In this document: in pieces, positions 21,944 to 48,500 of the stretch
Layout of the letters: the number at the start of each line of letters is the position of its first letter
How positions within the stretch are numbered: the stretch's first letter is position 1
DNA from: Escherichia phage BAU.Micro_ELP-22
Sequence record: OR699282.2
Length of the DNA stretch: 64,000 nt
Direction: 5' to 3' (one strand)
Made by a program: the position numbers and the translations under genes
Notes under the pieces: model-generated
The model's input: only the letters and a program-made list of their open reading frames with translations
Told to the model about the DNA's origin: nothing
Databases searched by the model: none

Positions 21944-23680
21944 TTAAACTACAGAAACTCCACTCATTGAAGGTGGAACGATTTGTTCAGCAATTAATAA
22001 TAAATTAGTTACTGTAAACTTACCACCATGTGACATTAACGTAATAGGTGTTCCATTAGTTACTAGGTTACCATTTTCATCAACACTTAAAAATGTATTA
22101 AATGAAATAGTATCAACCGTGATAGTTGGTGTTCTAACTTGATTGATATTATTAAATTGAGTATTTGTAAAATTAATAGCAAAACTCATATTAGACGAAC
22201 TAGTAGTCCATGTACCGTATATATTTAATTTGAAATTTAGAGAGGAATTGAAATTATAAACATTTAACTTATTACTTGTTGTATTGAAGAAACTATCTAG
22301 TGTTCCACTAGTGGGTGTGAATGATTTAAGTATTTGAATTAAATTTTGTTCAATTCCATCAGTGAATTGTATATTTAAGTTTGAATAATATAATTCTCTT
22401 TTTCGACGAATTAGGTTAGTAGTATTATTACCATTAACAAATAATCCAGTACTATCTGATGTTAATATATTACCAGAGGTATTACTGATTTTAGATGAAA
22501 TTACATTAGCGTCAATAGATATACCATTTCCCGCAGTATATGAGGATGGCCCAGATGGAACATACAACCCATTTACGTCAGTTGTTAACGTATTTCCTGG
22601 CGTTGTGCTTATTTTAGTTGAAATTGTTTCAGAACTAATAGATATACCAGTACCACCAACGTAATTTATTCTTGTATTAGGTACAAATAATCCAGTACTG
22701 TCAGTAGATAGTATATTACCAGAAGTAGAACTAATTTTAGTACTGATTACTTCACCACTGATAGAAACACCGGAACCAGCACTATAAGATACTGAATTAT
22801 CAGGCACAAATAAACCATTACTTGTAGAAGATAGTATGTTTTCTGATGTCGGGTCAACCTTCACACTTATTACATCATCACTAATTGAAATTCCATTTCC
22901 TCCATTATAAGTAATTGAGCTATTAGGTACGAATAATCCATTAATATCTGATGTTAGTATATTACCAACAGTAGAACTAATTTTAGTACTTATTTGGTCA
23001 TCACTAATAGTAATGCCAGTACCAGCATTATAAGTTATCGAATTATCCGGCACGAATAGACCAGTACTATCAGTTGTAAGGATATTTCCTAAAGATGTGC
23101 TTATTTTTGATGATATAATATTATTATCTATTTTAATACTTTCACTACCTGTATATGTTACGGTATTATCAGGTACATATAAACCATCTTCGGCAATCGT
23201 GAGGATGTTACTAGGTGATGTACTGATTTTAGTTGAGATAGTATTATCACTTATTGATACACCCGTGCCACCAGAATACACAATTGAGGTATTAGGTACA
23301 TATAAACCATTAGCATCAGATATCAGAATATTTCCAGAATTTAAACTCACTTTAGCAGATATAACATTTGTATTAACATCTATACCATTTCCAGCTACAT
23401 AACTTACAGTATTATCAGGAACATACAAACCATTAGAATCATTACTAAGAATATTGCCTTGTGTTGAACTTATTTTTGTGGATATTAAATTAGAAGATAT
23501 TGATATACCAGTTCCACCTTGATAGTTAATAGTATTATCTGGAACATATAAACCATCACTTTCATGAATTAAAATATTTTTATTTTTAGTACTAATATCA
23601 GGCACTGGTATCTTGCCTATTAGTTCGCCGTCATAACTGATATCACCATTTACAATAATATCTGTTCTTATATTATACAT
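21944..23680 (-). CDS. tail fibre protein with about eleven tandem ~35-aa repeats
   Basis: Repeats of ...ISTKISSTxGNILTxDSxGLFVPDNSxxYxxGxGISIS...; ORF-track start 23704 is TTG, first ATG with SD at 23680. Confidence 0.55.
   Translation of the reverse strand: MYNIRTDIIVNGDISYDGELIGKIPVPDISTKNKNILIHESDGLYVPDNTINYQGGTGISISSNLISTKISSTQGNILSNDSNGLYVPDNTVSYVAGNGIDVNTNVISAKVSLNSGNILISDANGLYVPNTSIVYSGGTGVSISDNTISTKISTSPSNILTIAEDGLYVPDNTVTYTGSESIKIDNNIISSKISTSLGNILTTDSTGLFVPDNSITYNAGTGITISDDQISTKISSTVGNILTSDINGLFVPNSSITYNGGNGISISDDVISVKVDPTSENILSSTSNGLFVPDNSVSYSAGSGVSISGEVISTKISSTSGNILSTDSTGLFVPNTRINYVGGTGISISSETISTKISTTPGNTLTTDVNGLYVPSGPSSYTAGNGISIDANVISSKISNTSGNILTSDSTGLFVNGNNTTNLIRRKRELYYSNLNIQFTDGIEQNLIQILKSFTPTSGTLDSFFNTTSNKLNVYNFNSSLNFKLNIYGTWTTSSSNMSFAINFTNTQFNNINQVRTPTITVDTISFNTFLSVDENGNLVTNGTPITLMSHGGKFTVTNLLLIAEQIVPPSMSGVSVV
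22460..23600 (-). repeat. in-frame tandem coding repeats (~105 bp unit, about 11 copies)
   Basis: Periodic peptide repeat visible in the translation of 21944-23680. Confidence 0.6.
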
Positions 23681-23700
23681 ATATTTTTCCTTATAATGAA

Positions 23701-23728
23701 ACAAAAAAAGGTCAACTATTGTTGACCT
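23701..23728 (-). terminator. rho-independent terminator (minus strand)
   Basis: AGGTCAAC-tatt-GTTGACCT with a T-tract on the minus strand. Confidence 0.55.
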
Positions 23729-23735
23729 TTATTAA

Positions 23736-24515
23736 TTAACGTATACGTTCAGGAATATCAATACCTTCATATACCCAAATTGCAGCTTGTTGTGCTTTAT
23801 AAATTGCATCAGGATCTAAATCATCAACCGCATCAATTGCAGAACACTGTTTATCACATTCGGTAAACAATTGCTCAATCATTGCAAATGCTTCAGTATA
23901 TAGTTGTGTCATTTCAGCAGCAGATAATTTAACAATTGCATCATCAAGAAAAATAGAAACACTTTCAGAGCCTGAAGTGACTTGTGTATAATAATTAAGA
24001 AGCATTTGACGACCAGACATATCAGTACTGTAACGATGACCATTGAACATATAACCAGAATTCATACGATTTGTACGTTCTGATATAGTTCTTGCTTTTA
24101 AATCAGCTTTAACATCTGCTATTGGCATATCAATATAATGATATGTTTTAAGAACAGTTAGTGCTTTATATTCTTCGGTAGCGTCTTCTAAAAATTCAAC
24201 AATAGGTTGATTTTCATCTTTTAATTTAATAAACTCCAACGGTTGTTCAATAGCATTAACATTTCCAACATTTTTATACACTAACCACCAAAAACCTTCT
24301 TCTTTTCTAACAGCATCATTAGGTTCTACTGGGGAACCATCTTTACTTGAAATACCATAAAGAGTTCTAATATCACTATAAAGATAACGATAGGTTTGTG
24401 GATCTTCTGGTGTTGCACCAGGACGTTCTTTAAGTCCTTTTACACCAATTGGATTGGAAATAATGTTTCCCAATTCATAATTTTCTTTTGAATTTCCTTT
24501 CACATATGTGAACAT
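23736..24515 (-). CDS. hypothetical protein (within the fibre locus)
   Basis: ATG start with GAGGT SD; no motif. Confidence 0.4.
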   Translation of the reverse strand: MFTYVKGNSKENYELGNIISNPIGVKGLKERPGATPEDPQTYRYLYSDIRTLYGISSKDGSPVEPNDAVRKEEGFWWLVYKNVGNVNAIEQPLEFIKLKDENQPIVEFLEDATEEYKALTVLKTYHYIDMPIADVKADLKARTISERTNRMNSGYMFNGHRYSTDMSGRQMLLNYYTQVTSGSESVSIFLDDAIVKLSAAEMTQLYTEAFAMIEQLFTECDKQCSAIDAVDDLDPDAIYKAQQAAIWVYEGIDIPERIR

Positions 24516-24579: not shown

Positions 24580-27500
24580 TTAAGCTGTACGTTGTGCAAT
24601 AAACATATCTGCTACTGGACTCACACCGTCATAAATGACTTGGTAAATGGTCACACTACCAGCAGTTTTGTTTAGAGTTCCATCAACAACCGCATAAGTA
24701 CCGTCAGTAGTAAAGTTTCTATTACCTGTTGCATCTTGTTTTACATAAATGTATACTGAAGATGCTTTACCACCACCAATTAGACCAGTGATTGGTGCTA
24801 GAGTTGTATCTTGATCTAGAGTGATAAAGTATACGTTGCTAGTACCGTCTGGGGTCCAAGTACCAGTTGGTGCGATAACAGAAGAAGTTACTTGATTAGG
24901 AATAACATCATATTTTTTAGTAGTTACTGTTGTAGTAGTTAGGTCAGCATTAGTAGTTGTTAATTGACCAGTTACAGTTACATCTTTATCAAATACCGCA
25001 TTTTCTTTGAAAGAAGATGTTGCATTGACAGTTAATGTATCAGCAGCAGCGTCACCTAAAACAACACTACCATTTGCAGTCATTAAACCAGTAACAGTTA
25101 AAGTACCACCGATGGTTGCTGCTCCAGTAACAGATGCACTAGCAAGTGTTGCTGCACCAGAAGTAGTAATGGTAGTTACTGAAGTTGCTGCTAGGGTTGC
25201 AGTACCTGTTGCAGAAATATCACCACCAACAGTTAGGTTACCAGAAGTAATTCCAACGGTTCCAGTAATGTTAGCACCACTTGACATTGTTACTGCACCA
25301 CCAAATGAACCAGTAGTAGTTACTTCAAGGGTGTTCCCTTTTAGTAGACCAGTTGCAGTAATACTTGTACCTGCGGTAATGCTAGTACCAGCAGCAACAC
25401 TGTTGGTTGCAGTTAATGATTTAACAGCTACATCAGAGTTTGCTTGGTTTAGTGTTGCGTTTAGAAGACCAGTTACTGTAAAGTTACCGTTGTTAACTAC
25501 GTTACCATTGATTGTTAAGTTGTTGTTTTGTGAACCAACATCACCAATAGTTGCTGATTTGGAAATCAACTCTGCACCAGAAGTAATGTTACCCGCTGCA
25601 CTAATAGTGTCAGCCGCAACAACTGCATAAGGTTCAATTGTTTGACCACTAACGTCAATATCAGCGTTGATACCACCATCTACACGCAAGGAGCCTGCAA
25701 TGTAAGTATTAGGGAAAATCTGAACTGTCTCTGGTTGATCACCAATTTTAGTACCAATAATAACATCAGAACCAGTTTTAACTGCACCAGAGGTTGTTAG
25801 AGAACCTAAAGTTGTAGCACCAGTTACGCCTAATGTTCCACCAATTGTTGCGTTATTGGTAACTGCTAATGCAGCACCTTCACCATTAAGAGCGATTGAT
25901 GGAGCAGATACTGCACCAGTTACGCCTAATGTTCCACCAATTGTTGCGTTGCCATCTGAATGTAGAGTTGTAGCTACAGAAAGACTGTTAGCAACTACAT
26001 CAGTACTAGCTAAATCCAATGCACCTGGGGTTAATGTACCAGTAATGTTAACATTATTACCAAAGGTTGCTGCACCAGTCACATCTAGTGTAGTACTAAA
26101 TGTACCAGAGGTTGCAGAGATTGCACCTGAATCTAGTGATCCAACAGTTGCTTTACCAGTTACACCTAAAGTTCCACCAACAGTTCCATTTGTGGTTACA
26201 TCCAATGTACCAGTACTTAGTTCTTGTGCGGTTACCTTACCGGATGCAGTAACAGTTGAAGTGGAAACGCCACCAGTTAGAGTACTAGCACCAGTAACAC
26301 TTAATGTGGTTGCAGCAGTTACGCTATTTACGCTAAGATCAGCACCGGATAAGTCCAAACCACCTTCAGGAACAAATACACCCTTAACAGTTAGTTTTTG
26401 TACTGTACTATCACCTGTTACATCCAAGGTAGAAGCAGTTAAACCACCATTCATACTTGCTGCACCAGTAACACCTAGTGTAGTGGTTACAGTAGCACTA
26501 TTAAGTGTTGAACTACCAGAAATATTAGCACTAGGAGCAGTAATAGTTCCAGAATCAACTTGTATACCACCTGCAACAACCTGAATTCCACCAGCATTAA
26601 CTGTTAGTTTACCAGCAGTATTCAATGTATTTGAAACTGTTGTTGCACCAGTTAAAGTTGTAGTACCAGTTACACCTAAGTTACCAGAAATAGATGGACT
26701 ACCTGTAATATTACCAGTAGTTAGTATCAAATCAGTACCTACGGTAGTGGAGCCAGTACTTTCTAGTGTTACACCAACGATGTTTGCAGAACTTAGGTTA
26801 ATAGTACCATCAACAGTTAAGTTACCTTGAACGGTTGCATCACCTAGAGAAGTTAATGTCTTCACAGACACATCAGTTGTGCTAAGATCAATAACACCCG
26901 CAGTTAGTGTTCCAGATACTGCTAAATTACCAGTAATCGCGGTATTTTTAGTAATGGATACATTTTCTGCCGCTGAAGTAATAGAACCAACAGTAAGTAC
27001 ACCACCAACAGTTGCGTTATTAGTTACATTTAGAGCAGTTCCAACACCAGATAGTGTTGCTGACCCACCAGTAATTGCACCTGAGATTGAAGCTGTTGCT
27101 GCTGAAACATCACCAGAAACTACTGCATTTGTTGCATTTAGAGCAGACACTGTTACTTCAGTACTTTGAACTTTAGGTAGAACGTTGATACCTTCTGCAC
27201 TACTAACTGTAATAATACCAGTACTTGTTATAGATTTAACAGATACATCAGCACCACTTAAATCAACTGTACCAGAAACAACAAGATCTCCACCAATATT
27301 TGCTCCAGCGGTAGTAGTAATGGATTTTGCACTTACATCAGTTGTGCTCAAATCAATTGCACCTGGTGTTACTGTACCAGAAACTGTTAGGTCACCAGTA
27401 ATAGATGTATTATTGGAAATAGATACACCATCAACGTTACTAATTGTTGGGGTTTCTACAGAAACTGCTTTAACTTTACCTGAAGAAGTTACGTCAGCTA

Positions 27501-30105
27501 CGGTAGATGCACCAGTAACATTCAAATTAGTAATATTTGCAGTTGTTGAACCAAGGGTTGCAATAGTTGCATCAGTACTTTGAAGTTTAGGTAGAACACT
27601 ACTAATTGTGGATTCATTACTAACAATTGCACCAGTACTAGTTAAAGATTTGACAGTAACATCAGCCGTAGTAAGATCTACTGTACCATTAACAGTTAGG
27701 TTACCACCAATAGTTGCACCAGCAGTAGTAGTAATGGATTTAGCATTAACATCAGTTGTTGCTAGATCGATAGAGCCTGGAATAACTGCACCAGTAACGG
27801 TTAGGTCACCAGTTACATTTGTATTATTGGAAATAGTGACACCACTTGCATTTGAAATGGTTGGGGTAACCAACGATGCAGTTGTAGTTTCACCAGTTAC
27901 AGTTAAAGTTGACCCAACTAGAACAGATGAGCTTGAGTAAATTGTACCCAAATTAGCAGATCCGGAAACAGTTATATCATCAGCATTAACAGTAGTTGCC
28001 GTTATGGTAGTACTATTAAGTACTGGAAGTACGTTAGCATTAACAAGATCATTACTTTTAACAATACCAGAAGTAGTTAATGATTTAACATTAAGGTCGG
28101 CTGCTGATAAATCAAAAGAGCCTTGAACTACTAAATCACCACCAATAGTTGCACCAGCAGTAGTAGTGATTGATTTAGCATTAATATCGGTAGTGCTCAA
28201 GTCTAGAGAACCAACAGTTAAGCTACCAGTAATATCAACATTTTCTGTAAAGTTAGTATTACCACTAATAGTTGGTGCAGTCAGAGTTGTTGCACTAATA
28301 TTAGTACCGTTAATTGTTTGCCCACTTACAGTTCCACTCGCAGTGATAGTAGGAGCCGTTACTTCAGTAGATGCACTAATTGTTGGTGCAGATACAGAAG
28401 TTGTACCAGTAATAGAACCAGAACTTACTGAACCAGCGGATAATGCACCAGAAAGAGTTGCAGTTGTACCAGCAATATCACCAGTAACAGTTAGTTTAGC
28501 ACCCACGGTAGTGTTACCAGTACTTTCAAGTGTTGCACCTTTAATATTTGCTGCCGCGACAACAGAATTAGGTGTTAGATCCTGACCACTAACATCAACA
28601 GTTAGTCCAGTTACTGTTCCAGTAAATTCAACATCATTAAGAATTGCTTTACCACCAACTTGTAGGAATGGTGTACCTGGAGCTTGTGTTTCGTTACCAG
28701 TAATAGTTAGGTAATCTAGTTTGTTTAGACCGTTACCAGTAATACCATAAGTGGAAAGAGAAGCGTTACCGAAAGTTGCTGTTTTAAGAACGTTCAATGT
28801 AGAAGGAGAAACAACTTCTGATTGAACTTCGTTAGGTAGAATAACTGTTGGGCGTTGACCTGGTGCAGTATATCCAAAACCTAGTTTCACTGCCGCATCT
28901 TGACTATTTTGACCTAAGCTGATAGCTTTAAAGGATGCAGTACTGTTATAACCAGTAATATTAGAACCAAGAGTAACACCACCAACTAATGAAGTTACAC
29001 CAGTAACGTTCAAAGATACTGCATTGATATCGTCTAGTTGGAACGTTCCACCAAGAAGTCCAGAAACATTAATGTTATTAAAATTAGCAGTACCAGTACT
29101 TTCGATATTTGGAATAGTTGCAGTTCCGGTTACTTCAAAGTCCGCAACTTTAGTTTTGCCTTTTTGAACTTCTAATAGTGGTGTGTCTGGTGATTGTGTA
29201 TTGTTACCAGAAACTGTTAGATAATCTAATTTGTTTAGACCATTACCAGTAATACCATAAGAAGATAATGACGCATTACCAAAAGAAGCAGAGGTCAATA
29301 CTGTCAAGTTTGCAGGTGACATTAGCTCGGACTGAATTTCGTTTTGTAGAATAACAGTTGGGCGTTTACCAGGAGCAGTGTAAGGGAAGCTTAATCTGAA
29401 GGTTTGTGATTCAGAGTTAGAACCAATACGAATGTCTTTAAAAGTAGCAGTACTGTTAATACCAGTTACGTTAGCACCGAAAGTTACTGCACCTTGTTGG
29501 TTAGATGCACCAGTAACGTTCAATGTTACTGCATTTAAGTCAGATAGATTAAACTCACCACCAAGTGTACCACTAATTGTCACATCTTTAAATGTAGCAG
29601 TACCAGTACTACTAATATCTGTTGTACTTACATTAGTAATTTCTGCGGTATTAGCAGTAATTTTATCAAATGCAGCAGTAGTCCCAACATCAGCAGTAAT
29701 ATTACCTTTAAATGCTGTTGTTTCAGCAACTTCTAAGTTTTTAACTTTAGTTGCTTGTAGAGTGGTTGTACCAGCAGTTTGTGTAAAATCAGAACCAACT
29801 GATACAGTACCGTTAAAGGTAGCGTTTGAATTAATTGTTGCTGTATCAGACCCGACAACTGCACTACCGATTGTAGTATTACCCTCAACACCAAGACCAC
29901 CAGAAAGTGTTGCTTTGCCACCTACATCTAAAGTAGATGTAATATTGGCAGTTGATGATTCAATGGCAGTAAAAGTTGCATTTGCAAAAGTTACAGTACC
30001 ATTTACAGTTAGGTTATTATTGAAAACAGCATTTCCTTTGACTAAAAGATCCTTACCAACCGTACCAGCACCAGTAATATCTAAGTCAGTTTTTATTGAG
30101 TACAT
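24580..30105 (-). CDS. giant fibrous protein (1841 aa), probable tail fibre
   Basis: Thr/Gly/Ser/Val-rich beta-rich repeats; GGAGGG SD; internal duplications at two scales. Confidence 0.65.
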   Translation of the reverse strand: MYSIKTDLDITGAGTVGKDLLVKGNAVFNNNLTVNGTVTFANATFTAIESSTANITSTLDVGGKATLSGGLGVEGNTTIGSAVVGSDTATINSNATFNGTVSVGSDFTQTAGTTTLQATKVKNLEVAETTAFKGNITADVGTTAAFDKITANTAEITNVSTTDISSTGTATFKDVTISGTLGGEFNLSDLNAVTLNVTGASNQQGAVTFGANVTGINSTATFKDIRIGSNSESQTFRLSFPYTAPGKRPTVILQNEIQSELMSPANLTVLTSASFGNASLSSYGITGNGLNKLDYLTVSGNNTQSPDTPLLEVQKGKTKVADFEVTGTATIPNIESTGTANFNNINVSGLLGGTFQLDDINAVSLNVTGVTSLVGGVTLGSNITGYNSTASFKAISLGQNSQDAAVKLGFGYTAPGQRPTVILPNEVQSEVVSPSTLNVLKTATFGNASLSTYGITGNGLNKLDYLTITGNETQAPGTPFLQVGGKAILNDVEFTGTVTGLTVDVSGQDLTPNSVVAAANIKGATLESTGNTTVGAKLTVTGDIAGTTATLSGALSAGSVSSGSITGTTSVSAPTISASTEVTAPTITASGTVSGQTINGTNISATTLTAPTISGNTNFTENVDITGSLTVGSLDLSTTDINAKSITTTAGATIGGDLVVQGSFDLSAADLNVKSLTTSGIVKSNDLVNANVLPVLNSTTITATTVNADDITVSGSANLGTIYSSSSVLVGSTLTVTGETTTASLVTPTISNASGVTISNNTNVTGDLTVTGAVIPGSIDLATTDVNAKSITTTAGATIGGNLTVNGTVDLTTADVTVKSLTSTGAIVSNESTISSVLPKLQSTDATIATLGSTTANITNLNVTGASTVADVTSSGKVKAVSVETPTISNVDGVSISNNTSITGDLTVSGTVTPGAIDLSTTDVSAKSITTTAGANIGGDLVVSGTVDLSGADVSVKSITSTGIITVSSAEGINVLPKVQSTEVTVSALNATNAVVSGDVSAATASISGAITGGSATLSGVGTALNVTNNATVGGVLTVGSITSAAENVSITKNTAITGNLAVSGTLTAGVIDLSTTDVSVKTLTSLGDATVQGNLTVDGTINLSSANIVGVTLESTGSTTVGTDLILTTGNITGSPSISGNLGVTGTTTLTGATTVSNTLNTAGKLTVNAGGIQVVAGGIQVDSGTITAPSANISGSSTLNSATVTTTLGVTGAASMNGGLTASTLDVTGDSTVQKLTVKGVFVPEGGLDLSGADLSVNSVTAATTLSVTGASTLTGGVSTSTVTASGKVTAQELSTGTLDVTTNGTVGGTLGVTGKATVGSLDSGAISATSGTFSTTLDVTGAATFGNNVNITGTLTPGALDLASTDVVANSLSVATTLHSDGNATIGGTLGVTGAVSAPSIALNGEGAALAVTNNATIGGTLGVTGATTLGSLTTSGAVKTGSDVIIGTKIGDQPETVQIFPNTYIAGSLRVDGGINADIDVSGQTIEPYAVVAADTISAAGNITSGAELISKSATIGDVGSQNNNLTINGNVVNNGNFTVTGLLNATLNQANSDVAVKSLTATNSVAAGTSITAGTSITATGLLKGNTLEVTTTGSFGGAVTMSSGANITGTVGITSGNLTVGGDISATGTATLAATSVTTITTSGAATLASASVTGAATIGGTLTVTGLMTANGSVVLGDAAADTLTVNATSSFKENAVFDKDVTVTGQLTTTNADLTTTTVTTKKYDVIPNQVTSSVIAPTGTWTPDGTSNVYFITLDQDTTLAPITGLIGGGKASSVYIYVKQDATGNRNFTTDGTYAVVDGTLNKTAGSVTIYQVIYDGVSPVADMFIAQRTA
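27050..28280 (-). repeat. three to four tandem ~135-aa coding repeats inside the giant fibre gene
   Basis: Recurring G(S/A)IDLSTTDV(N/S)AKSITTTAGAxIGGxLxVxG...DLSxADVxVKSxT. Confidence 0.55.
28640..29640 (-). repeat. two tandem ~165-aa coding repeats (~500 bp each) near the N-terminus of the giant fibre
   Basis: DNA around 28690-29160 and 29200-29630 aligns by eye; peptide blocks FGNASLS(S/T)YGITGNGLNKLDYLT and YTAPG(K/Q)RPTVIL repeat. Confidence 0.6.
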
Positions 30106-30194
30106 TTATACCCTCCATTATAACCTTGTTAATATGTATATATTTAGTTTTATTATGCTGTTATCCAACAATTAATATGTTATTTGACAAAAGC

Positions 30195-30240
30195 AAATAT
30201 AATAAAAAACCAGACTTATTTAGAACAAGTCTGGTTAATT
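30195..30240. terminator. hairpin with T-tracts on both strands, just after the 30244-31140 stop
   Basis: AACCAGACTT-9 nt-AAGTCTGGTT. Confidence 0.55.
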
Positions 30241-30243
30241 TTT

Positions 30244-31140
30244 TTACTTACCAGAGATTACAATCTTACCACTGAAAGAAATATCAGAAGTGAAGATTAC
30301 ATCACCAGTACTACTAATTTGTGTATCAGTCACTACCAATTCAAATGGAGATGACGCAACACTCCCAGGTGTTTTATTTGCATAAATTGAAATATACAAA
30401 TTATCTGGTGTTTGATTGTGTTCAGATGCAGGAATAGTGATTGTAAAATCACCAGCACTAGAAACCCAATCTGCTTGGTTTACCAATTTACTATAAGGTA
30501 CTGTCATTGTTGTTGCTCCTATAATGTTTACTTTAACACTTGCATAATCTGTGATTTGACCAATCACATCAATTGTTATATCCCCAATACCACTAACTGT
30601 TACTGTGGTTTGGAATACTGATTCCAATGCAACATTACCTGGGTCACCTTGTAGTTGGATCATAATATCAGAACCTCTACCATGAACTGATTCTGGTAGT
30701 GTGTAAGTATAATGATCAGTAGTATCTGGTACTAATGTAAATGCAGAAACAGGAACTATTTCAGTAGTTACATATGAACTATCAGTCCCAGGTGAGCTAC
30801 CTTTAAATGGTTTCCAAATACCAAGATCTTTAATATAAATTTGAAGAACATTAGTACTATCAACCAAAAAGTAAACGTCACCATCTAGACCGATTGAATC
30901 GGATGGTGCTGTTGTTCCACGTAAGATACCAGAACTACCACCACCACTGTGTGCGTTTAAATATCCCAATGTAACCAAGTGTGTGTTTGCAGTTGGTTCA
31001 CCTGCTGAAATTGGAAGAAGTTGTGTTCCTGAGTAGTTTTGAATTTGCACAACACTACCATTTGTGGTAATCTGTGCACCATTCTTCCCAAGAATGAAGG
31101 ACTTCTTCATGGTTCCTTCTAAATTAGAAAAAACTGCCAT
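30244..31140 (-). CDS. receptor-binding protein (short) sharing an N-terminal domain with the adjacent tailspike
   Basis: N-terminus MAVFSNLEGTMKKSFILGKNGAQI... parallels MAVFSNFEGTMQPKFILGKKGASI... of 31157-33298. Confidence 0.5.
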   Translation of the reverse strand: MAVFSNLEGTMKKSFILGKNGAQITTNGSVVQIQNYSGTQLLPISAGEPTANTHLVTLGYLNAHSGGGSSGILRGTTAPSDSIGLDGDVYFLVDSTNVLQIYIKDLGIWKPFKGSSPGTDSSYVTTEIVPVSAFTLVPDTTDHYTYTLPESVHGRGSDIMIQLQGDPGNVALESVFQTTVTVSGIGDITIDVIGQITDYASVKVNIIGATTMTVPYSKLVNQADWVSSAGDFTITIPASEHNQTPDNLYISIYANKTPGSVASSPFELVVTDTQISSTGDVIFTSDISFSGKIVISGK

Positions 31141-31156
31141 TTTAATATAATCTCCT

Positions 31157-33298
31157 TTATGGTAGGGTTATGTAAGTTACGGGTTGGGCAGCTTTTAATG
31201 CTGCACCAGCGGCAGTTGCTGTTATGATAGGATCTGCAATATCAATTCTATATACGTTGTTTACAACATACACTGCACGAGTTATATACGTTCTCAAATC
31301 ACCACCATTTTCACCAGCACCGGATATAATGATCTCAGTACCAGCAGCTTTTGCATATTGGTTTTCACCCCATGACACACCCAATGCTTCTATGTATGTT
31401 TGTCCTACTACCGTTTGTCTAATTGTGTCATATTTTCCGAAAAAAGAACCACCAACAGTTACAATATATTTTCCACCCGATTGTTTATGAATAATCGTGC
31501 CTTCAGAGAAATAGCGTCCCCCAGGAAAAGTATCGTATGGAATATAATATTGCTCAACTACAGGTATCAGTACTGGGCCACGGTGACCTGTACCATCGAT
31601 TGCAGTTGTAACTTTAAAGTTATTAGATGATTGGTCTATTCTGTCTACATACATTTTAGAAAAACTATATTTTGAAACATTACAATCATCTTGAACAACA
31701 CAGTTAGTCCAATTAGTATAAGTATATTTAGAGCGAGTATAGATACCACCACCTTCGCCTTCGGTAGAGAGGTGTTGACCAATTACATCTAATTCTTTAG
31801 TTCTAATATCACTAAATTTAGATGATGATGGCAAACCACGCCAAAGGATTTTAGAACAGGTGATATTGCTCAATTCTGTATTATTTAACCAATTATCAGA
31901 ACCGGAAGTATAAACAAGTATAGAAGACTCTGGAATATAGAGATTAGAAATTTTAAAGTTTCTAGGTGGTCCAGCAAAACGACCAGAAGTTACACCCCAG
32001 TTTATTGAAACCATTCTATTTGTGATAGAAGGATCATTAAGCAAATGACCAGTCAACCCATCAATAATGAATTCTTTCGAACCATAAGTTATAACACCAG
32101 CAGTGGTTAATCCAGTACCAACAGAAACTAAAGATGATGGATAAACTTCATTATTAAGTATTTTAAAGTCCATTCCTAATTCAACGTGGATACATTGTCT
32201 AACATTATATAGTCTGTTATTTTTAATAACAAAGTTTCTGACATATTGTGTATCTGGTGCATCTAAACCATAAGGTCCAGAACCAGCAACGCCAATACCA
32301 ATACCCCAGTTTGAAAGTGGGATTGGAGCGTTAGAACCATCAACGTTTTCAATTACGTTTCCTTCAATCACAAAACCATCAGGATAATGTGAGTTAATTA
32401 CGTTTAGTTCAATTGCATCACCATAGATATCATGAATATGGTTATATGAATATCTACCAACCTTCATTTTCTCACCAGTACCTTGTTGAAGAACACCATA
32501 CTTACATTGGGTCATTTCATTAAAGCAAAAATCTATTGTTCCTGGTTGTGTCATACCTTGCATTAAAAATGCAGCAGTACTTGTGATGTTTATAAATTTA
32601 TTAAAATAAAACTTACCATCTCCACCGAAGAATTTTAAATAACATCCAGTAAGTGTTGCAAATTGTATTTGGGAATTAATAACGGATACCATAGTACCAC
32701 CATTACCAGTAATAGTTCCCCCAAACCAAGTTACATCTTCCAGGTATATTGCAGTTTTGATACGGTAATTACCACCAGCCTGAATTTGGATTTTATTTTC
32801 TTTAGCATAAGCAGCACATAAATTTACAGCAGCAGTGTCATCAGTTTCGCCATCACCTTTAGCACCAAATTCTTCTGGTGTTATATAAAACTGTGCCTGT
32901 TGAACTGTACCTCCAGTAATAAGTCCGATGAAATCTCCACCATTTTTACTGGATAGAACTTTTTTATTAATGTATAATGATTTTACCCATGTACCATTGC
33001 TTTTTGCAAAAATATCAACAATACCATCTTCATCAATTTGAAAATACGTATTATTGTTCTTTCCTATATCATCTGTAGGTGGTACAACACCAAATAATGC
33101 ATTAGGGTTATCTTCAAGATATTTTACGTTAACTGCTGAATTAGGGTCAGATGAAGTTCCTACCTTCAGTGGTAGGAACTGTTCTCCTAGATAATCTTTT
33201 ATAGAAACTGAATCATTGATAAAATTTATTGAAGCACCTTTTTTCCCCAATATGAATTTGGGCTGCATAGTTCCTTCAAAATTAGAAAATACTGCCAT
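31157..33298 (-). CDS. tailspike with a pectate-lyase-fold polysaccharide depolymerase domain
   Basis: Signature EEFGAKGDGETDDTAAV typical of right-handed beta-helix glycanases; N-terminal domain shared with the neighbour. Confidence 0.7.
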   Translation of the reverse strand: MAVFSNFEGTMQPKFILGKKGASINFINDSVSIKDYLGEQFLPLKVGTSSDPNSAVNVKYLEDNPNALFGVVPPTDDIGKNNNTYFQIDEDGIVDIFAKSNGTWVKSLYINKKVLSSKNGGDFIGLITGGTVQQAQFYITPEEFGAKGDGETDDTAAVNLCAAYAKENKIQIQAGGNYRIKTAIYLEDVTWFGGTITGNGGTMVSVINSQIQFATLTGCYLKFFGGDGKFYFNKFINITSTAAFLMQGMTQPGTIDFCFNEMTQCKYGVLQQGTGEKMKVGRYSYNHIHDIYGDAIELNVINSHYPDGFVIEGNVIENVDGSNAPIPLSNWGIGIGVAGSGPYGLDAPDTQYVRNFVIKNNRLYNVRQCIHVELGMDFKILNNEVYPSSLVSVGTGLTTAGVITYGSKEFIIDGLTGHLLNDPSITNRMVSINWGVTSGRFAGPPRNFKISNLYIPESSILVYTSGSDNWLNNTELSNITCSKILWRGLPSSSKFSDIRTKELDVIGQHLSTEGEGGGIYTRSKYTYTNWTNCVVQDDCNVSKYSFSKMYVDRIDQSSNNFKVTTAIDGTGHRGPVLIPVVEQYYIPYDTFPGGRYFSEGTIIHKQSGGKYIVTVGGSFFGKYDTIRQTVVGQTYIEALGVSWGENQYAKAAGTEIIISGAGENGGDLRTYITRAVYVVNNVYRIDIADPIITATAAGAALKAAQPVTYITLP

Positions 33299-42546: not shown

Positions 42547-45500
42547 TTACTTAACTAATAATATATTTTTAATATCATTACCACTAACTTGTAGACTATC
42601 AGTGTATACTGAAAGATCTATAGTGTAACTATTTTGTGTGTAACGTTTTAACATATCATAATTACCTAAATTAATTCCATTGAAAGAATATGTAGTATTA
42701 AGTTTAAAATCATGTTCTGCACTATACATTACACCACGGAGTAAATTATTTGCATTTCTAACTTCAACTTTTTCATATCCAATCGATATAATATCATTCA
42801 TGTTCGCGGCTGAACCGGATAAAACATTATTTCTAATACTATAAGGACTTATTGATTTAGGTTGAGAAACATAGGTTGTATTTTCTTCACTAATGGTTGT
42901 GATGTTAGTAACAGTACCCCCAACAACACCGATATACATACCGTCAACCATTGGGAATCCATAAACCCATATCCCTTCATTATTTCTAAACGGTTGAATA
43001 ACACTTGAATCATATTCGATAACGTTGATTTCTAAACTATCAGTCATTTTAGTTCTTGCCAATTCACTAAGAACTCCCGCACCCGTAATTGGTAAGTTAT
43101 AACCGTTATCGATAGTAATTCCATCAACATCAAATATTTCATTGGAGATTATCCAAACGTCAACGTCATCTGGTGTTATTCCGTCATTGTACTTACCACC
43201 ATTTAAAGTAGTATCGTAGAAAACATCATAATTAATTACATCAATGGTGTAATTTCTATTTTGTTCATACAATTTAATACCATTCTTGACAAATTCAGGG
43301 TCAGCAAATGTTCTAACACGAACAATGTTCAATGCTAGAGGCTGTACTGGCTCATTTTGTTGTGCAAGAGTGATGTTATCATAACGGAGAACTGCACCAG
43401 TACTCTCATCAATCAATTCAATCGTTTCCTTACCTGTATTTCTTACAGTGAATAGGATCGGAGTTGTATTGTTTTTGATGTTAGATACACGCAAGATTGT
43501 TTCCCATGTGTGATTTTGATATCTCACAAAATCTTCACCATCAGGAGTGAAAATCATCACCTTATCACCATCAGATAGGTCATTGTCAACTATTTCTGCT
43601 TCAGTTAAGCTATTAATAGATCTCACACGATAGAAATATTTTTCATCAAACTTCGATGTTGTTTTATTAATATCATTTTCAATCTTAGCATATGAAGGAA
43701 TACTTACAATTGCTTCTGTATGTTTATATGGATTGATAATTGCCATACCTTCAGTTTGATATCTGCTGTTATCACGTAATTGTACAAGAGATACATTGTC
43801 AAACCCATATCCATCAACTGTAAATCTAATTTGTCCAACATCACGCCCAGAAGGGTTTATGTCAGATATATCCACAATATAAGGATCAACTTCATCATCT
43901 TTAACTTCCCATTTTATTGAAGAAGTTTGAGATTCCAATGCTAGGTTATCAAATGCATTCATATCATTGAAGTACTTAGCTTCAGTAATACTATCAAGTA
44001 TATATTGATAATCAGAATACATTGGATTATTTTGATCTAGTGGTAAATCATCAAGATTTATTTCAGCTAGTTCAACCATTTCACCATTTGTGATAAAATA
44101 ATCTTCCATGAAATCATCAATACTTTGTTCATCAGGTATACTTTGATATACACCGTTAACATTTAAGTAAACATATTTTCGTGGAATCATTGTAATTGCA
44201 TAGATATCAATTGGGGTCTTACTAAGAATCTCTTCAGCTTTTTCGTACTTATCAGTAGCGTCTTTGTCGAATAACCCTCTCATACCTGCTAATACGTGAA
44301 TAGCATCAGTATAGAAACGGGTATCACCACCTACTTCATCATAACGATAAACATATACACCATACTCAACTTCAAGTTTAACTTTTACTTCATAGTCTGA
44401 TGCGTCAGGATTTTTATCTTTAATTAATGAAATGTATTTTTGATACAATTCACTGCTTATTTCAAAATATCCATAGTTATAATCATTACTAGAAGAAAAG
44501 CCTAATGGAAGTCTAGTACTAGGATTGTCATTATAAGTAAGTCCACTAAATCCACATCCAACTTCATCGTGAATTTTCTCATCACTTATATCTTTATAAA
44601 GTTTCAAACGGTTTGCCAATGTGTTATACTGAACATATTGTCTAAGGTCAGTAAACATATCGTTATGCGTTGATTCTTTATAAACACGTTCCAATGTAGC
44701 AGTGAATTCATCAGTTGCTTCTAAATCTTCCGCATGGTCTTTATACCACTGGTTAACGCCATATGCTGTTCCTAGTGTTACATCCAATTCTGGATAGTAG
44801 ATTTGCATTTGATAAGCAATAAGAAGATCGAAAGTTTCTTCACTATATTCTGGGAAAGAATATATATAACGTTGTAATTCATAGTTACTAACAGCATCCT
44901 TTTCATTGGATTGATATTTGTTATTAACACTTACTAATTCATTTATGCTTGCCAAATCTTCATTTGGTTTACACTGAATATTATCATAATGCATAATAAT
45001 ATCAATTTCTTGGAATCTTCTATTTGGTGTAACGAAATCACTTGGTAGTGAACCTACCTGTTCCCATTTTTGGGTAATTTCATTAAATTGAGCGTACTCA
45101 TAATCCCAAATATCTTTTTCAGTTTTGATCCAAGAACTGTCAACGAAAATATATCCATTAGGATCTAAATCATTACATAGACCTTTTATTAAATCATCAT
45201 CAGATGTCTTTTGCTCTATTTGTGAACGAATTTTAGTTCTATAAGGTTTAACTTCTTCAAAATATTCAACAATTTGATTAATCAAATTATCGTTTGAATA
45301 GTTTTGAACTAATGATTGTTCCAAACCAACAATATAGATATATGATGTTTTAAATACCCAATCCACAACACTTTGTTCAACATGTACATATTTGACCATA
45401 TCAAAAACAATTTCGCTTTGATGTAAATCGAAAGAATTTTTGAGTAAAGCTAGTGCTTTACGAACGTTGATTTCACGATTGCTTAGTGAACCATTATCAT

Positions 45501-48500
45501 TATGAACACTATAATCTGCGTAAAGCATATCATTGAGTTCAACTGTACTGTTTTCACGACCAATCGCTTTCCAATAAATTGAATCGCGTGATTGTGATTT
45601 AATATACAATGTCCAAATGTTTTCACTATCGGTAACTCTGATAATATCGCCAACTTGGTAGTTTTTAGTATTAGCATCTTCTAAGCTTGACTCTTGAGTA
45701 TAAGTCGTGTTACTATCATATCCAACATCATACCAATCAGCATATGACCAGTACTGAGTCATGTCTAATGAGGTTCCTAGTGATTCAACATAATCAGATT
45801 GTTTAATCATTTTATGTTGTCCCTCACCTTTGTTTTCTAACGTTATAGTAACAACACTACCCGCGTTTGCTGGACTATTCATTAACTGAATATATCCATT
45901 TTCGTCGAAGTGAATAAAATAAACAGCACTAGAAGTTAATGGATTTGGTAGATATCCACTAGTACTTAAAATAACAGCGTCATTTTCTTTAAATTTATCA
46001 CTTTCAACTGCAATAACTAATTCATTATTGTAAGACAACACACGGAAAGAAACTTCATTAGGGTTAACTTCAGTGGTTTTAACATTAAACACATCTTCCA
46101 TAACAACACTATTAGTGGTTATGTTTTGTGACCTATAATAATTATTAGCACTTTCTACAAAGTTTCTACGAGCTTCTATAACATTTTGGAACCAAGTTTT
46201 GTTTGATCCTAAACCGTTATCAACATCTGGATATAATAAATTAATCACAGAACCTGATTCAGTTGTTTCTTGACCAATTAGTGAGTTCCACATTGAATCC
46301 CAAATTAGTGGGTTAAAGTTATAGCTGTCACCTTCTTTACATAGTTGATACTGGTCATGTTTAACAACTTCAGTACTATCCATGTAATAAGAAACAGTTA
46401 AAATACTGGTATCATCATTCACTTTAAATTGCATATTACTAAGAATAAACGAGTTTTCATTTATTGGAGCGAACCAAGGAATGTTTAGCTGTGTTGGATC
46501 TTTAATAATACGAGCAATGTCAGTACATGATTTCGTTCTGGTATGTAGTGGTGGTACATAAATTGTATCACGTACCCAGAAATAGTATTTTGTCACATAA
46601 CTATCAGTTGAACTATCATATTCCAAAAATGTACTATAATTATCTTCAAGTGCAGTTCCACTTGGTAGATACATAGTATTATTTTTGTTTTTCTTAGCAA
46701 CATCTTTACAGTATTTGTCCCAGTTATATGGCTCAACTGGTGAACAAACCCACTCTAACACATCAATGGTACTATGTGGCAACAAACGGCCCCAGTTGTA
46801 ACGTTTGTATTCATTGGTTGCATCAATATCAACATTACCGTCTGCGTCATAAATTGCACGAGTATAATCCAAATAAAATGCAGTGCTAGTGTTCCACCAT
46901 ACTTGACCAACTTTATCAGCACCCCAAGCCTGGATTAACTCTCCATTACTATTATACTGTGCAGGATCAACTGGTGAAGTATATGTTACGTTTTGCATAG
47001 CCGCACCTGGAATAACACCATTAATTGGGTCATAAACATTTAGATATAGCTCAGTAATGTTAGTACGTTCATCATATGTCGTTGGACGATCAAATAAAGT
47101 ACTTTGTGGTGCTTTAAAACTATATTTCTTGTCAATGTAAGCTTGACGTTCATCAGTACTGGCAAAACGTGATACATAACGATACAAACGTGGACGTGTA
47201 TCTGGATCAGTAAATTCAATATCAATAGAAGTGTCAAATGGAACTACCATAACTTTAGGATCAGAACCAGCAGTATAATATTGACTTTCTACTGTTAAAG
47301 TATCTGGCATAAAGTTAGTTTCATCAACAAAATAATAATAATCACCATCTTCAAGTGGTACATTATCAGTTAAAGTTACTTTACAAAATTGTTCAGCATA
47401 CACATCGGTATTTTCAATAGGTGTTATAGAAACCATTTGCACATTAGTATCAACCAATTCAAAAATGTTCCACAAACCATTACCGTCTTTAAACATCCAC
47501 ACAGATTCAGGATTTTCACCTTTACCATTAGTATAAGTTATGCGGTCATTATATGCAGTACTGAAATCTTTTGTTGTGTACGATACTTCATCCAATGTTA
47601 CTGGACCAATATCTGGAAGTTGGATGTTTTCACTTCTTCCACTACGCATTGGGAATGAGAACTTACCATTTGGACGTGTAATCCAACGAGGATCTTTACC
47701 TTGCTCACCGAAGTATACAATATGATTACCATTACCATTTGAAGTTGCATTTACATCAAAAGAAACCATTTGAGGTTGTTGTTTAAATTGGTCATTGATT
47801 AGTTTAAATTGAAGGTTTTTCTTACCATCAATATTACCATATGTACCAATTTTAAATGCCCATTCTTGTAATGCTTTATATTCATCAGTGTCATATGATT
47901 TAGAAACACGAAGTACACGTTCTAAAACTTGGTTAGTACCTTTATCGTGAATGAATCCTTTATAGAAATCAACACGACTAACATCACTACTAATCATACG
48001 CTGTAGATAATCACGAGATTGATAACCAATCAAATGGTTTGACAACTCTTGTAATTGTACATCACTTACTGGAGTTTCACTATCATAATAATGTTGGAAA
48101 TCCGACACTAATTTTTCAAATGATGGTAGTGTTCCAGCTTCCAAGATAATAAATCCAGGAGCTTGTAGGCGACCAGTCCATGAACCAGTAATATATCCAT
48201 ACATTTTAATTAGTTCTTGAATAGAACCATATGTTGGCTGATAAATGTAATCACCAAAAATAGTTTTATCATCAAAAATAACAGCATGTTCATATGAACA
48301 CAAACTTAAACGAATCAATGCAATGCGTTTATTAGATTCTAAAGTTCTAACAGTGAAGATATTTCCAATACGAGAAGTTTCAATTTCATATTGGCGAATA
48401 CCTTGGTTATTATCATCAAGTAATGACCATACACCACCATTATTTTGCGTAATAGATTGTACTGAACCAAAGTCTGCCCCAAATTTAGCGTTTGCAGCAC

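Follow-up and report, generated by a model that had tools for sequence, protein, structure and literature searches.

The 64,000-nucleotide stretch of Escherichia phage BAU.Micro_ELP-22 analysed here (record OR699282.2; hereafter the window) carries on its minus strand an open reading frame at 24580..30105, which starts with ATG and encodes a protein of 1841 aa (180.3 kDa, pI 4.2). The translation is dominated by T, G, S, V and A, which together account for 62% of the residues, and cysteine is absent. Reading the sequence 5' of the ATG, we find a Shine-Dalgarno-like GGAGGG at a distance of 5 nt (30111..30116, minus strand), and a consensus scan places a terminator-like hairpin, with a 13-bp stem followed by a T run, 3' of the upstream gene (30208..30236, minus strand). 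The hairpin suggests that the fibre gene may begin its own transcription unit; the number of sites returned by the promoter and terminator consensus scan in this region was not above the expectation from shuffled sequence. Pfam and PHROG profiles identify the neighbours in the cluster as a pectate-lyase-like tailspike, a DUF4376 protein and a knob-tipped repeat fibre.

The preliminary description of this locus had called the open reading frame a fibre gene, and this is supported by homology to the phiTE fibre (see below), by a match to PHROG 4549 (tail fibre protein; E = 2.8e-226, 754.6 bits, 9 stretches) and by mass spectrometry of phAPEC6 virions, in which the orthologous Gp256 (180.38 kDa) was detected with 15 peptides (PMC7247149). 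The homolog CBB_226 was likewise detected in virions, with 10 peptides (PMC5259590). Among phage records, 62 contain a homolog, and in 27 of these the match spans 80% or more of the query; a protein database gave 24 clusters, mostly on contigs of ~350 kb. Full-length homology together with the alignment consensus at both ends, MYSIKTDLD at the N-terminus and ...VYDGVS..D.FIAQR at the C-terminus, places the protein in the giant fibre family of Asteriusvirus, CBB and GAP32. An NCBIfam search of the fibre protein returned no family, and PF26209, a Pfam tag precomputed on the homologs, was absent from our own Pfam scan even at E ≤ 1.

The segments of the protein, all on the minus strand, are as follows. 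The N-terminal region (aa 1-154; 29644..30105) is predicted to be beta-rich, and its MYSIKTDLD... start is kept in all orthologs and paralogs. Two tandem units, A1 (aa 155-324; 29134..29643) and A2 (aa 325-494; 28624..29133), are delimited by self-BLASTP, profile and alignment, with the C-terminal half of A2 aligning to phiTE. The linker or shaft that comes after them (aa 495-611; 28273..28623) starts with a 14-aa partial third copy of A and holds the motif FTGTVTGLTVDVSGQDLTPNSV, common to phiTE. DNA repeat families, self-BLASTP and profile then mark units B1 (aa 612-756; 27838..28272), B2 (aa 757-894; 27424..27837) and B3 (aa 895-1049; 26959..27423), and a half unit B4 (aa 1050-1122; 26740..26958) matches positions 1-73 of the unit-B profile with E = 1.5e-16. 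Self-BLASTP and profile also resolve a repeat pair C (aa ~1213-1325 and ~1326-1440; 25786..26469), of which the segment at aa ~1304-1415 (25861-26196) occurs in two copies in phages UB and JP4. The C-terminal region (aa 1657-1841; 24583..25137) is homologous to residues 612-792 of the phiTE fibre.

The self-comparison was made with 120-aa chunk queries; a whole-against-whole BLASTP gives the trivial self match only. We observe that A1 and A2 follow each other at a period of 170 aa and share 60% of their residues, with 101 invariant columns, a Smith-Waterman score of 517 against 43 ± 8 in shuffles (z = 61), a chunked self-BLASTP E of 4.6e-52 with composition correction on, and DNA that is 68.75% identical over 448 nt (E = 1e-44). 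Unit B is present in 3.5 copies (aa 612-1122) with periods of 145, 138 and 155 aa and identities of 45-55% (z about 24); its DNA is 68.5% identical over 639 nt (E = 4e-57), and one DNA repeat family consists of four in-register copies of 174 nt at spacings of 465, 414 and 435 nt. The two N-terminal units of the preliminary description are thus in tandem as it proposed, at a period of 170 aa and not ~165, its three to four middle units of ~135 aa correspond to the 3.5 units of 138-155 aa, and the diverged but recognisable DNA identity that it reported holds for both families. Three further repeats had escaped it, namely pair C (period 112-114 aa, identity about 40%, z = 14), a sub-repeat of lag 30-35 aa within unit B, and a hydrophobic periodicity of ~5.8 residues across regions N, B, C and D. 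Its view that duplication acted at two scales was correct as to repetition at several scales and understated as to their number, which is at least four (the ~6-residue beat, the 30-35-aa sub-repeat, the modules of 112-170 aa, and duplication of the whole gene in relatives). Tandem Repeats Finder reported short, low-score arrays only and did not detect the large units, which is to be expected of repeats with less than 70% identity. Searching a unit-A profile against 1.84 billion representative proteins returned only 11 clusters; the A module is confined to this fibre family, and the search offered no wider functional clue.

Although 62% of the protein comes from five residues, many short repeat families at 60-70% identity are probably compositional and shuffled units still score 70-120 in local alignment, we give next to no credence to the idea that the large repeats are T/G/S/V/A-rich low-complexity beta-strand sequence self-aligning by chance or convergence, since the actual units obtain alignment scores of 310-517 where residue shuffles obtain 43-81 (z = 24-61), composition-corrected BLASTP reaches E = 4.6e-52, the DNA is 68-69% identical over 450-640 nt (E = 1e-44 to 4e-57) and the register of unit A is exact across 170 aa. 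Shuffle controls refute a compositional origin for units A, B and C, and such an origin is a fair account only of the short repeat families. The protein therefore contains head-to-tail, in-frame repeats beyond what composition yields (z = 14-61, E down to 4.6e-52).

Antisense to the fibre gene, the plus strand carries seven open reading frames (25007-25630, 25856-26584, 26879-27169, 27185-27583, 27608-27940, 28166-28585 and 29432-30175), all in one shared frame. A stop in this frame can arise only where NNT precedes a Tyr or Gln codon, a context shown by all 32 of the stops found; their number equals that in codon-shuffled genes (32.2 ± 3.6), in which open antisense runs extend up to 551 codons against 281 observed. 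Additionally, the open stretches are not conserved in their boundaries, which fuse and divide freely from one ortholog to another. That codon shuffling reproduces the scarcity of stops makes the plus-strand frames artefacts of composition, as the preliminary description had held. It is extremely doubtful that one or more of them is a real overlapping antisense gene: they are long (96-247 aa), the frame at 29432-30175 has an ATG start and reaches 70 nt past the fibre gene, and three are annotated as CDS (hypothetical proteins) in PBECO4 (KC295538), but in that record the true fibre gene is cut by the record end and left unannotated, and the annotations of 121Q, UB, JP4, ph0011, UE-S1 and slurp01 hold no opposite-strand gene within the fibre gene.

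A comparison of repeat number among related phages, which the preliminary description had suggested, reveals that unit counts differ, with two or three A units and two or three C units. Ortholog lengths are 1827, 1834, 1841, 1959 and 2129 aa, and the expectation that duplication can change length is confirmed at the protein level (1827 to 2129 aa). The alignment gaps between orthologs that are 96-97% identical amount to exactly 170 aa and 112 aa. The UB ortholog (1959 aa) shares locus and termini with the window fibre, is 96-97% identical to it over shared columns and differs by an additional 112 aa, a third C unit, and an additional 6 aa. The JP4/CRJP21 ortholog (2129 aa), with the same identity, locus and termini, has both of UB's additions plus a third A unit of exactly 170 aa. 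Copy number is therefore polymorphic in whole-unit steps among close relatives (C count 3 in UB and JP4 vs 2 in the window fibre). Furthermore, counts with profile HMMs give three A units in the downstream paralog of JNE01 and in the metagenomic relatives P0002, P0011 and P0012, and one in P0023.

The extra units carry traces of how they were formed. In the middle A unit of JP4, nt 1-340 match the A2/A3 type with 87-100% DNA identity, nt 346-510 match A1 with 91-98%, and the parent switch at about nt 346 falls in the YGITGNGLNK block, the only stretch in which A1 and A2 reach 97% DNA identity. This hybrid, A2-type towards its 5' end and A1-type towards its 3' end, is the signature of unequal crossing-over. 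Similarly, aa 1310-1421 and 1422-1533 of the UB protein are 90-100% identical in DNA, and both ends of the duplicated segment lie in the block where the old C units are best conserved (aa 1301-1330/1413-1443 of the window fibre, 64.5% identical). Junctions within the best-conserved repeat blocks, as found in both JP4 and UB, are what unequal homologous recombination predicts. Taken with the extra A unit of JP4 and the extra C unit of UB and JP4, the hybrid middle unit sustains the earlier proposal of expansion by tandem duplication.

The differences in unit number could instead stem from deletions in the lineage of the window or from horizontal exchange of fibre segments, rather than from new duplications. 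The three-unit A arrays of the distant JNE01 downstream paralog and of P0002, P0011 and P0012 would fit this, as would the mosaic nature of fibre genes, the window joining a 121Q-type fibre to a PBECO4-type neighbouring gene. We nevertheless regard it as improbable. The C copies of UB are 90-100% identical in DNA against about 40% in protein for the old copies, which marks a recent duplication whichever lineage is ancestral, and the extra unit of JP4 is built from its own A1-type and A2/A3-type sequence (91-100% identical) with no imported diverged unit. Two A units are present in eleven 1841-aa genomes as well as in the more distant ph0011 and UE-S1, and two is thus the parsimonious ancestral state; for unit A a gain in JP4, as opposed to a loss in the lineage of the window, is probable and not proven.

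The original A duplication is old. In a tree of units, A1 units group with A1 and A2 with A2 across orthologs and paralogs, codons for identical residues agree at the third position at a rate of 0.67 where the baseline is 0.55, and relatives at ~35% identity likewise carry two A units; the A1/A2 duplication is older than the split of the whole phage clade. For unit B the grouping by position is not clean in distant relatives, and the tree is too noisy to date the B duplications. At the largest scale, two tandem copies of the whole fibre gene are present in fEgEco12, BF17 and JNE01. A paralog of the fibre gene is absent within the 64-kb window, in which tblastn gave the trivial self match only. 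Megablast returned a second matching "place" per relative genome.

We consider it very probable that the open reading frame is genuine and expressed, that its product is a 180-kDa fibre protein in the virion of a jumbo myophage of the genus Asteriusvirus (121Q/PBECO4/slurp01 group), and that it grew by in-frame tandem duplication and unequal recombination. The layout consists of a conserved N-terminal region, module A (2 x 170 aa), module B (3.5 x 138-155 aa), module C (2 x ~112 aa) and a conserved C-terminal tip domain. The modules would have been born by in-frame tandem duplication, the old ones being ancient, and the old repeats would then serve as homeologous targets for unequal recombination, which would gain or lose exactly one period and so keep both the reading frame and the structural register. 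Each added unit would probably make the trimeric fibre some 6-11 nm longer, and more units would thus mean a longer physical fibre. The hydrophobic beat of ~6 residues, which runs over most of the length, is typical of beta-helical fibre shafts.

Regarding the fold, the fibre of the Pectobacterium vequintavirus phiTE (PDB 9CUY/9MJN chain g, 793 aa) is homologous to the window fibre (HMMER against all PDB chains, E = 2.4e-29) and is the sole PDB match at E ≤ 1 (phmmer, all PDB chains). From the description in the paper, chain 9cuy_g appears to be the long fibre of phiTE and not its third, unmodelled fibre. The phiTE fibre has been described as trimeric, with an extended beta-helix (PMC11972413), of which only the N-terminal part was experimentally modelled. 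The A unit's C-terminal half and the linker align to phiTE residues 205-446, the linker motif FTGTVTGLxxDVxGxDLxPxSV is common to both proteins, and so are the C-terminal ~180 aa (phiTE residues 612-792). In contrast, phiTE has a single A-like domain, lacks the B and C arrays and is far shorter (793 vs 1841 aa). The window protein lacks an equivalent of the N-terminal helical "rip-cord" (residues 14-171) by which the phiTE fibre is anchored to wedge and sheath-initiator proteins; no alignment of the window fibre to phiTE residues 1-200 was obtained, and the window N-terminus has a beta-type T/G/V-rich pattern as in the shaft.

Other structural searches gave little. Searching the PDB with profiles of units A and B returned nothing credible, and AF2 monomer predictions of aa 140-520 and aa 600-1140, from alignments of 24 sequences each, were poor models (pLDDT 52.7 and 61.1). 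The sole Pfam match of the window protein is to Bactofilin (PF04519), with 18.2 bits and so below the cutoff of 27.9, and the homolog P0005 passes it with 42.5 bits, a mere hint of beta-helical rungs. A trimeric beta-helical fold is thus suggested by periodicity, composition, the sub-threshold Bactofilin match and the analogy to phiTE. The last ~110 aa of the fibre are also found in the Pectobacterium phages POP15, POP17 and POP18, and the C-terminal region is presumed to be the receptor-binding tip.

We infer that the gene product is attached at the baseplate. Hairs of 119 ± 10 nm and baseplate fibres of 28.6 nm have been described in CBB, where the hair gene is without assignment (PMC5259590). 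In electron micrographs of phAPEC6, CBB and fEgEco12 only short baseplate fibres are seen, which is hard to square with a baseplate fibre of ~100-120 nm. It is conceivable, though rather unlikely, that the protein forms not a T4-like baseplate half-fibre but the long (~100-120 nm), flexible hairs or whiskers that sit on both sheath and capsid in phAPEC6, CBB and fEgEco12, or a different long, flexible filament that catches flagella, with unit number tuning length. Scaling from phiTE (793 aa, predicted 512 Å) gives about 119 nm for 1841 aa, which matches the CBB hairs, but the scaling is approximate and extrapolates from a model that is itself predicted. phAPEC6 and fEgEco12 bear hairs plus short baseplate fibres, and the CBB_226 homolog is present in the virion; GAP32, however, has a homolog and is not reported to be hairy. 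Additionally, the only solved relative is the fibre of the flagellotropic phage phiTE, and SHEFM2K, with a fibre 99.6% identical to the window fibre at the protein level, is said to be flagellotropic in work cited by PMC11895373. Against these points, the hairs are spread over numerous positions (three rings on the sheath, and the capsid) and would need several attachment interfaces, the gene lies within a baseplate-type receptor-binding cluster, and other giant virion proteins are also candidates, such as that of the 3333-aa open reading frame at 42547-52548. Were this gene to encode the hairs, the filaments would capture flagella or entangle through the C-terminal domain common to phiTE, gain and loss of whole A and C units would be a fast, register-preserving tuning of hair reach, and a small open question of jumbo-phage morphology would be settled.

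The closest known counterparts are orthologs. 121Q gp571, phAPEC6 Gp256, slurp01 PSLUR01_00469 and the SHEFM2K fibre share 99.6-99.7% protein identity with the window fibre, its length of 1841 aa, its unit counts and its flanking genes, and the DNA of the gene is 98.9-99.4% identical to that of slurp01, 121Q and phAPEC6. In the gene itself the window phage shows no real difference from them; it differs in an extra knob-tipped fibre gene next door. A literature search found no paper on the module architecture of these fibre orthologs. The present case is a clean, fully sequence-documented one of the growth of a very long phage fibre, in which ancient duplications leave short conserved blocks that serve as recombination points for the gain and loss of whole units. 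It predicts a measurable order of fibre length, from the 121Q type through UB to JP4, and it defines natural module boundaries for the engineering of jumbo coliphage fibres considered for therapy. It also flags a recurring annotation error, the antisense "hypothetical proteins" of PBECO4.

Several GenBank records label the gene as gp34 of phage T4. T4 gp34, at 1289 aa, is a very long fibre protein with internally repeated structural domains, fragments of which are deposited in the PDB, and the two proteins are alike in being very long, internally repeated fibres. No gp34 homology was found among PDB chains at E ≤ 1, a search that covers the deposited gp34 fragments only, and Pfam and NCBIfam gave no gp34-type family in the fibre protein; the label "T4 gp34-like proximal subunit" is unsupported by any sequence test in this analysis. 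The identified neighbours (the DUF4376 protein, the knob-tipped fibre and the pectate-lyase-like tailspike) include no gp35/36/37-type partner.

That repeat number evolves by unequal recombination is a general phenomenon, seen in the receptor-binding proteins of phages and in the surface proteins of bacteria. The window fibre resembles these systems in its in-frame, head-to-tail units, its polymorphic copy number and its junctions in conserved blocks. It differs in having units of considerable size (112-170 aa) and age (identities of 40-60%), and recombination is therefore homeologous and apparently limited to short, highly conserved blocks. Overall, neither the gene nor its mode of evolution is new; this is an ordinary route for phage fibres, and it is well documented here.

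We found that the fibre gene is exactly one ORF (24580..30105, minus strand) with an ATG start preceded 5 nt upstream by GGAGGG, encoding a protein of 1841 aa (180.3 kDa, pI 4.2, without Cys) of which T, G, S, V and A make up 62%; a 13-bp terminator-like hairpin lies 3' of the gene upstream of it. The source genome is an Asteriusvirus jumbo myophage of ~348 kb, and DNA identity across the target region reaches 99.4% in slurp01 and 98.9% in 121Q, phAPEC6, Sharanji and SHEFM2K. The protein matches PHROG 4549 (tail fibre protein; E=2.8e-226), and the orthologous phAPEC6 protein Gp256 ('tail fiber protein', 180.38 kDa) is present in purified virions (PMC7247149), as is the CBB homolog CBB_226 (PMC5259590). 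The family spans 62 phage records, all from jumbo phages of the Asteriusvirus/CBB/GAP32/Eneladusvirus/Munch group. The 24 database homologs (P0001-P0024) bear the precomputed Pfam tag PF26209, with PF26208 in P0024, and neither family was returned by a local Pfam scan of these homologs. The neighbourhood is a receptor-binding-type cluster, with a pectate-lyase-like 'colanic acid degradation' tailspike (31157-33298, minus strand; PHROG 6117, E=4e-264) and a 298-aa virion structural protein (30244-31140, minus strand) upstream, and a 259-aa DUF4376 protein (23736-24515, minus strand) and a knob-tipped fibre gene downstream. No sequence test run supported the 'long tail fiber proximal subunit' (T4 gp34) label used in GenBank.

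We compared the fibre protein with itself by BLASTP, using 120-aa chunks against the whole protein, and observed clear off-diagonal lines in three regions. In aa 155-507 the offset is 170 aa (identity up to 65%, E=4.6e-52); in aa 612-1135 the offsets are 138, 145, 155 and 283 aa (identity 44-67%, lowest E 1e-35); and in aa 1205-1443 the offset is ~112-114 aa (~40% identity, E=3e-12). We set the boundaries of units A1 (aa 155-324) and A2 (aa 325-494), units B1 (aa 612-756), B2 (aa 757-894) and B3 (aa 895-1049) with a half-unit B4 (aa 1050-1122), and a C pair (aa about 1213-1325 and 1326-1440) accordingly. At the DNA level, A1 and A2 share 68.75% identity across 448 nt (E=1e-44), the B region matches itself at 68.5% over 639 nt (E=4e-57), and a repeat search recovered four in-register B copies spaced by 465, 414 and 435 nt. 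Composition does not explain these alignments, with Smith-Waterman scores of 517 for A, 310-339 for B and 192 for C against 43-81 for residue shuffles (z of 61, about 24 and 14, respectively). The preliminary description of duplications at two scales was thus right for the A and B units, and had overlooked the C pair, a sub-repeat of 30-35 aa within B and a hydrophobic periodicity of ~5.8 residues extending over regions N, B, C and D.

The same description had dismissed the plus-strand ORFs in this gene as antisense artefacts, and our analysis agrees. All seven such ORFs of at least 96 aa lie in one frame, which contains 32 stops, compared with 135 and 228 in the other antisense frames and about 119 per frame after mononucleotide shuffling. 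All 32 trace back to Gln (CAR) or Tyr (TAY) codons, or in one case to the gene's own stop, each with an NNT codon before it. In this protein Gln (2.0%), Tyr (1.0%) and His (0.05%) are rare. Shuffling codon order reproduces the count (32.2 ± 3.6 stops), with a longest open run of 224 codons on average and 551 at most, compared with 281 observed, and the open stretches fuse and divide freely across orthologs. In PBECO4 (KC295538, L006 3931-8607), whose record stops inside the fibre gene, the artefact has had a practical outcome: the sense frame, open for 1641 codons, is unannotated, and three antisense ORFs in the same stop-poor relative frame carry hypothetical-protein annotations.

Repeat number among relatives differs by whole A or C units. 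Annotated orthologs at the same locus have 1841 aa in 121Q and ten others, 1834 aa in ph0011, 1827 aa in UE-S1, 1959 aa in UB and 2129 aa in JP4, and the multiple alignment contains only two large indels, in proteins that are otherwise 96-97% identical: JP4 alone has one of exactly 170 aa, and it shares with UB another of exactly 112 aa. With unit profile HMMs, three A units were found in JP4 and in the JNE01 downstream paralog (aa 155-324, 324-494 and 494-664), and two in all others tested; among the 24 database homologs, three are present in P0002, P0011 and P0012 and one in P0023, with B-type units numbering about three to five. The middle A unit of JP4 is a hybrid, its first ~340 nt being 87-100% identical in DNA to the A2/A3 type and its last ~165 nt 91-98% identical to A1, as expected when A2 of one genome crosses over unequally with A1 of another. 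These exact indels and this recombinant unit uphold expansion by tandem duplication.

The parent switch in JP4 maps to the YGITGNGLNK block (aa 284-293 and 454-463; window ~29227-29256 and ~28717-28746, minus strand), the sole stretch in which A1 and A2 DNA is 97% identical. Because synonymous sites outside it are near saturation (third-position identity of 0.67 versus a baseline of 0.55), this block suggests either gene conversion or a strong constraint at the nucleotide level. Similarly, aa 1310-1421 and 1422-1533 of UB are 90-100% identical in DNA, and the ends of the duplication lie within window aa 1301-1330 / 1413-1443, the best-conserved block between the old C units. With both junctions in conserved blocks, old, diverged duplications act as templates for new ones that keep the register. 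The A1/A2 split itself is ancient; A1 units form one cluster and A2 units another across orthologs and both paralogs of other phages, and two A units are already found in ~35%-identity relatives (Salmonella, Erwinia and other jumbo phages).

Duplication also extends to the whole gene, as in fEgEco12, BF17 and JNE01 the locus has two full-length paralogs in tandem (L011 3163-13967, L012 2997-13783 and L013 3175-14562, respectively), of 1628-1644 aa followed by 1906-2120 aa, with a gap of ~140-150 nt. The window gene is the counterpart of the downstream copy, with which it shares 93-94% identity at the C-terminus; the figure for the upstream copy is 52-58%, and the divergent tip of that copy suggests a possible second receptor specificity. 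The evolution of fibres through repeats is already familiar and this gene is in GenBank many times over; we found no paper on its module architecture or copy-number polymorphism.

The knob-tipped fibre gene (21944-23704, minus strand; 586 aa from TTG, the true start likely being the ATG at codon 9, 'MYNIRTD') has ~10 tandem 41-aa (123-nt) units, 'ISTKISSTxGNILSxDSxGLFVPDNSxxYxxGxGISIS', and a C-terminal Sf6-type tail-needle-knob domain (PF16532, E=3.6e-27). Its slot lacks the gene in 121Q, slurp01, phAPEC6, SP27 and G17, and PBECO4, CRJP21 and UB (455 aa) carry a version ~370 nt shorter; because presence and length differ between phages, the window phage is a mosaic and this gene is also variable in repeat number. 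A 3333-aa ORF (42547-52548, minus strand), equivalent to 121Q gp582, is almost double the fibre gene in size. It probably corresponds to phAPEC6 Gp245 (381.9 kDa; detected by mass spectrometry in virions, PMC7247149) and is a further candidate for an unusual filament of the virion.

Finally, the only solved relative of the fibre protein is chain g of PDB 9CUY/9MJN from flagellotropic phage phiTE (E=2.4e-29), which has in common with it part of an A unit, a linker motif and the C-terminal ~180 aa. The phiTE long fibre is described as trimeric, with an extended beta-helix and a predicted length of 512 Å (PMC11972413), and we infer that chain g is this fibre. Profiles of individual units found nothing in the PDB, and AF2 monomer models of fibre segments were poor (pLDDT 52.7 and 61.1); fold and oligomeric state are likewise what we infer. 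The C-terminal ~110 aa (24583-24915, minus strand; aa ~1731-1841) are 42% identical to those of POP15, POP17 and POP18, Pectobacterium phages of ~153 kb, and are also common to phiTE. SHEFM2K has a fibre protein 99.6% identical to this one and is reportedly flagellotropic (as cited in PMC11895373). Judged from these sequence relationships, the tip may bind flagella.

Scaling by 0.65 Å per residue for phiTE, or by T4 gp34 at about 0.54 Å per residue, gives the rough figures of ~100-120 nm for the 1841-aa fibre, with an A unit adding 9-11 nm and a C unit 6-7 nm. Such a length would fit poorly with the baseplate fibres, which are short by EM in CBB (28.6 nm; PMC5259590) and likewise in phAPEC6 and fEgEco12. 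The estimate does agree with the 119-nm 'hairs' of CBB, which have no assigned gene (PMC5259590). This agreement and the flagellotropism reported for SHEFM2K underlie a less likely reading, in which the protein would form such hairs and serve in the capture of flagella. GAP32, which has a homolog yet is not reported to be hairy, weakens this reading.
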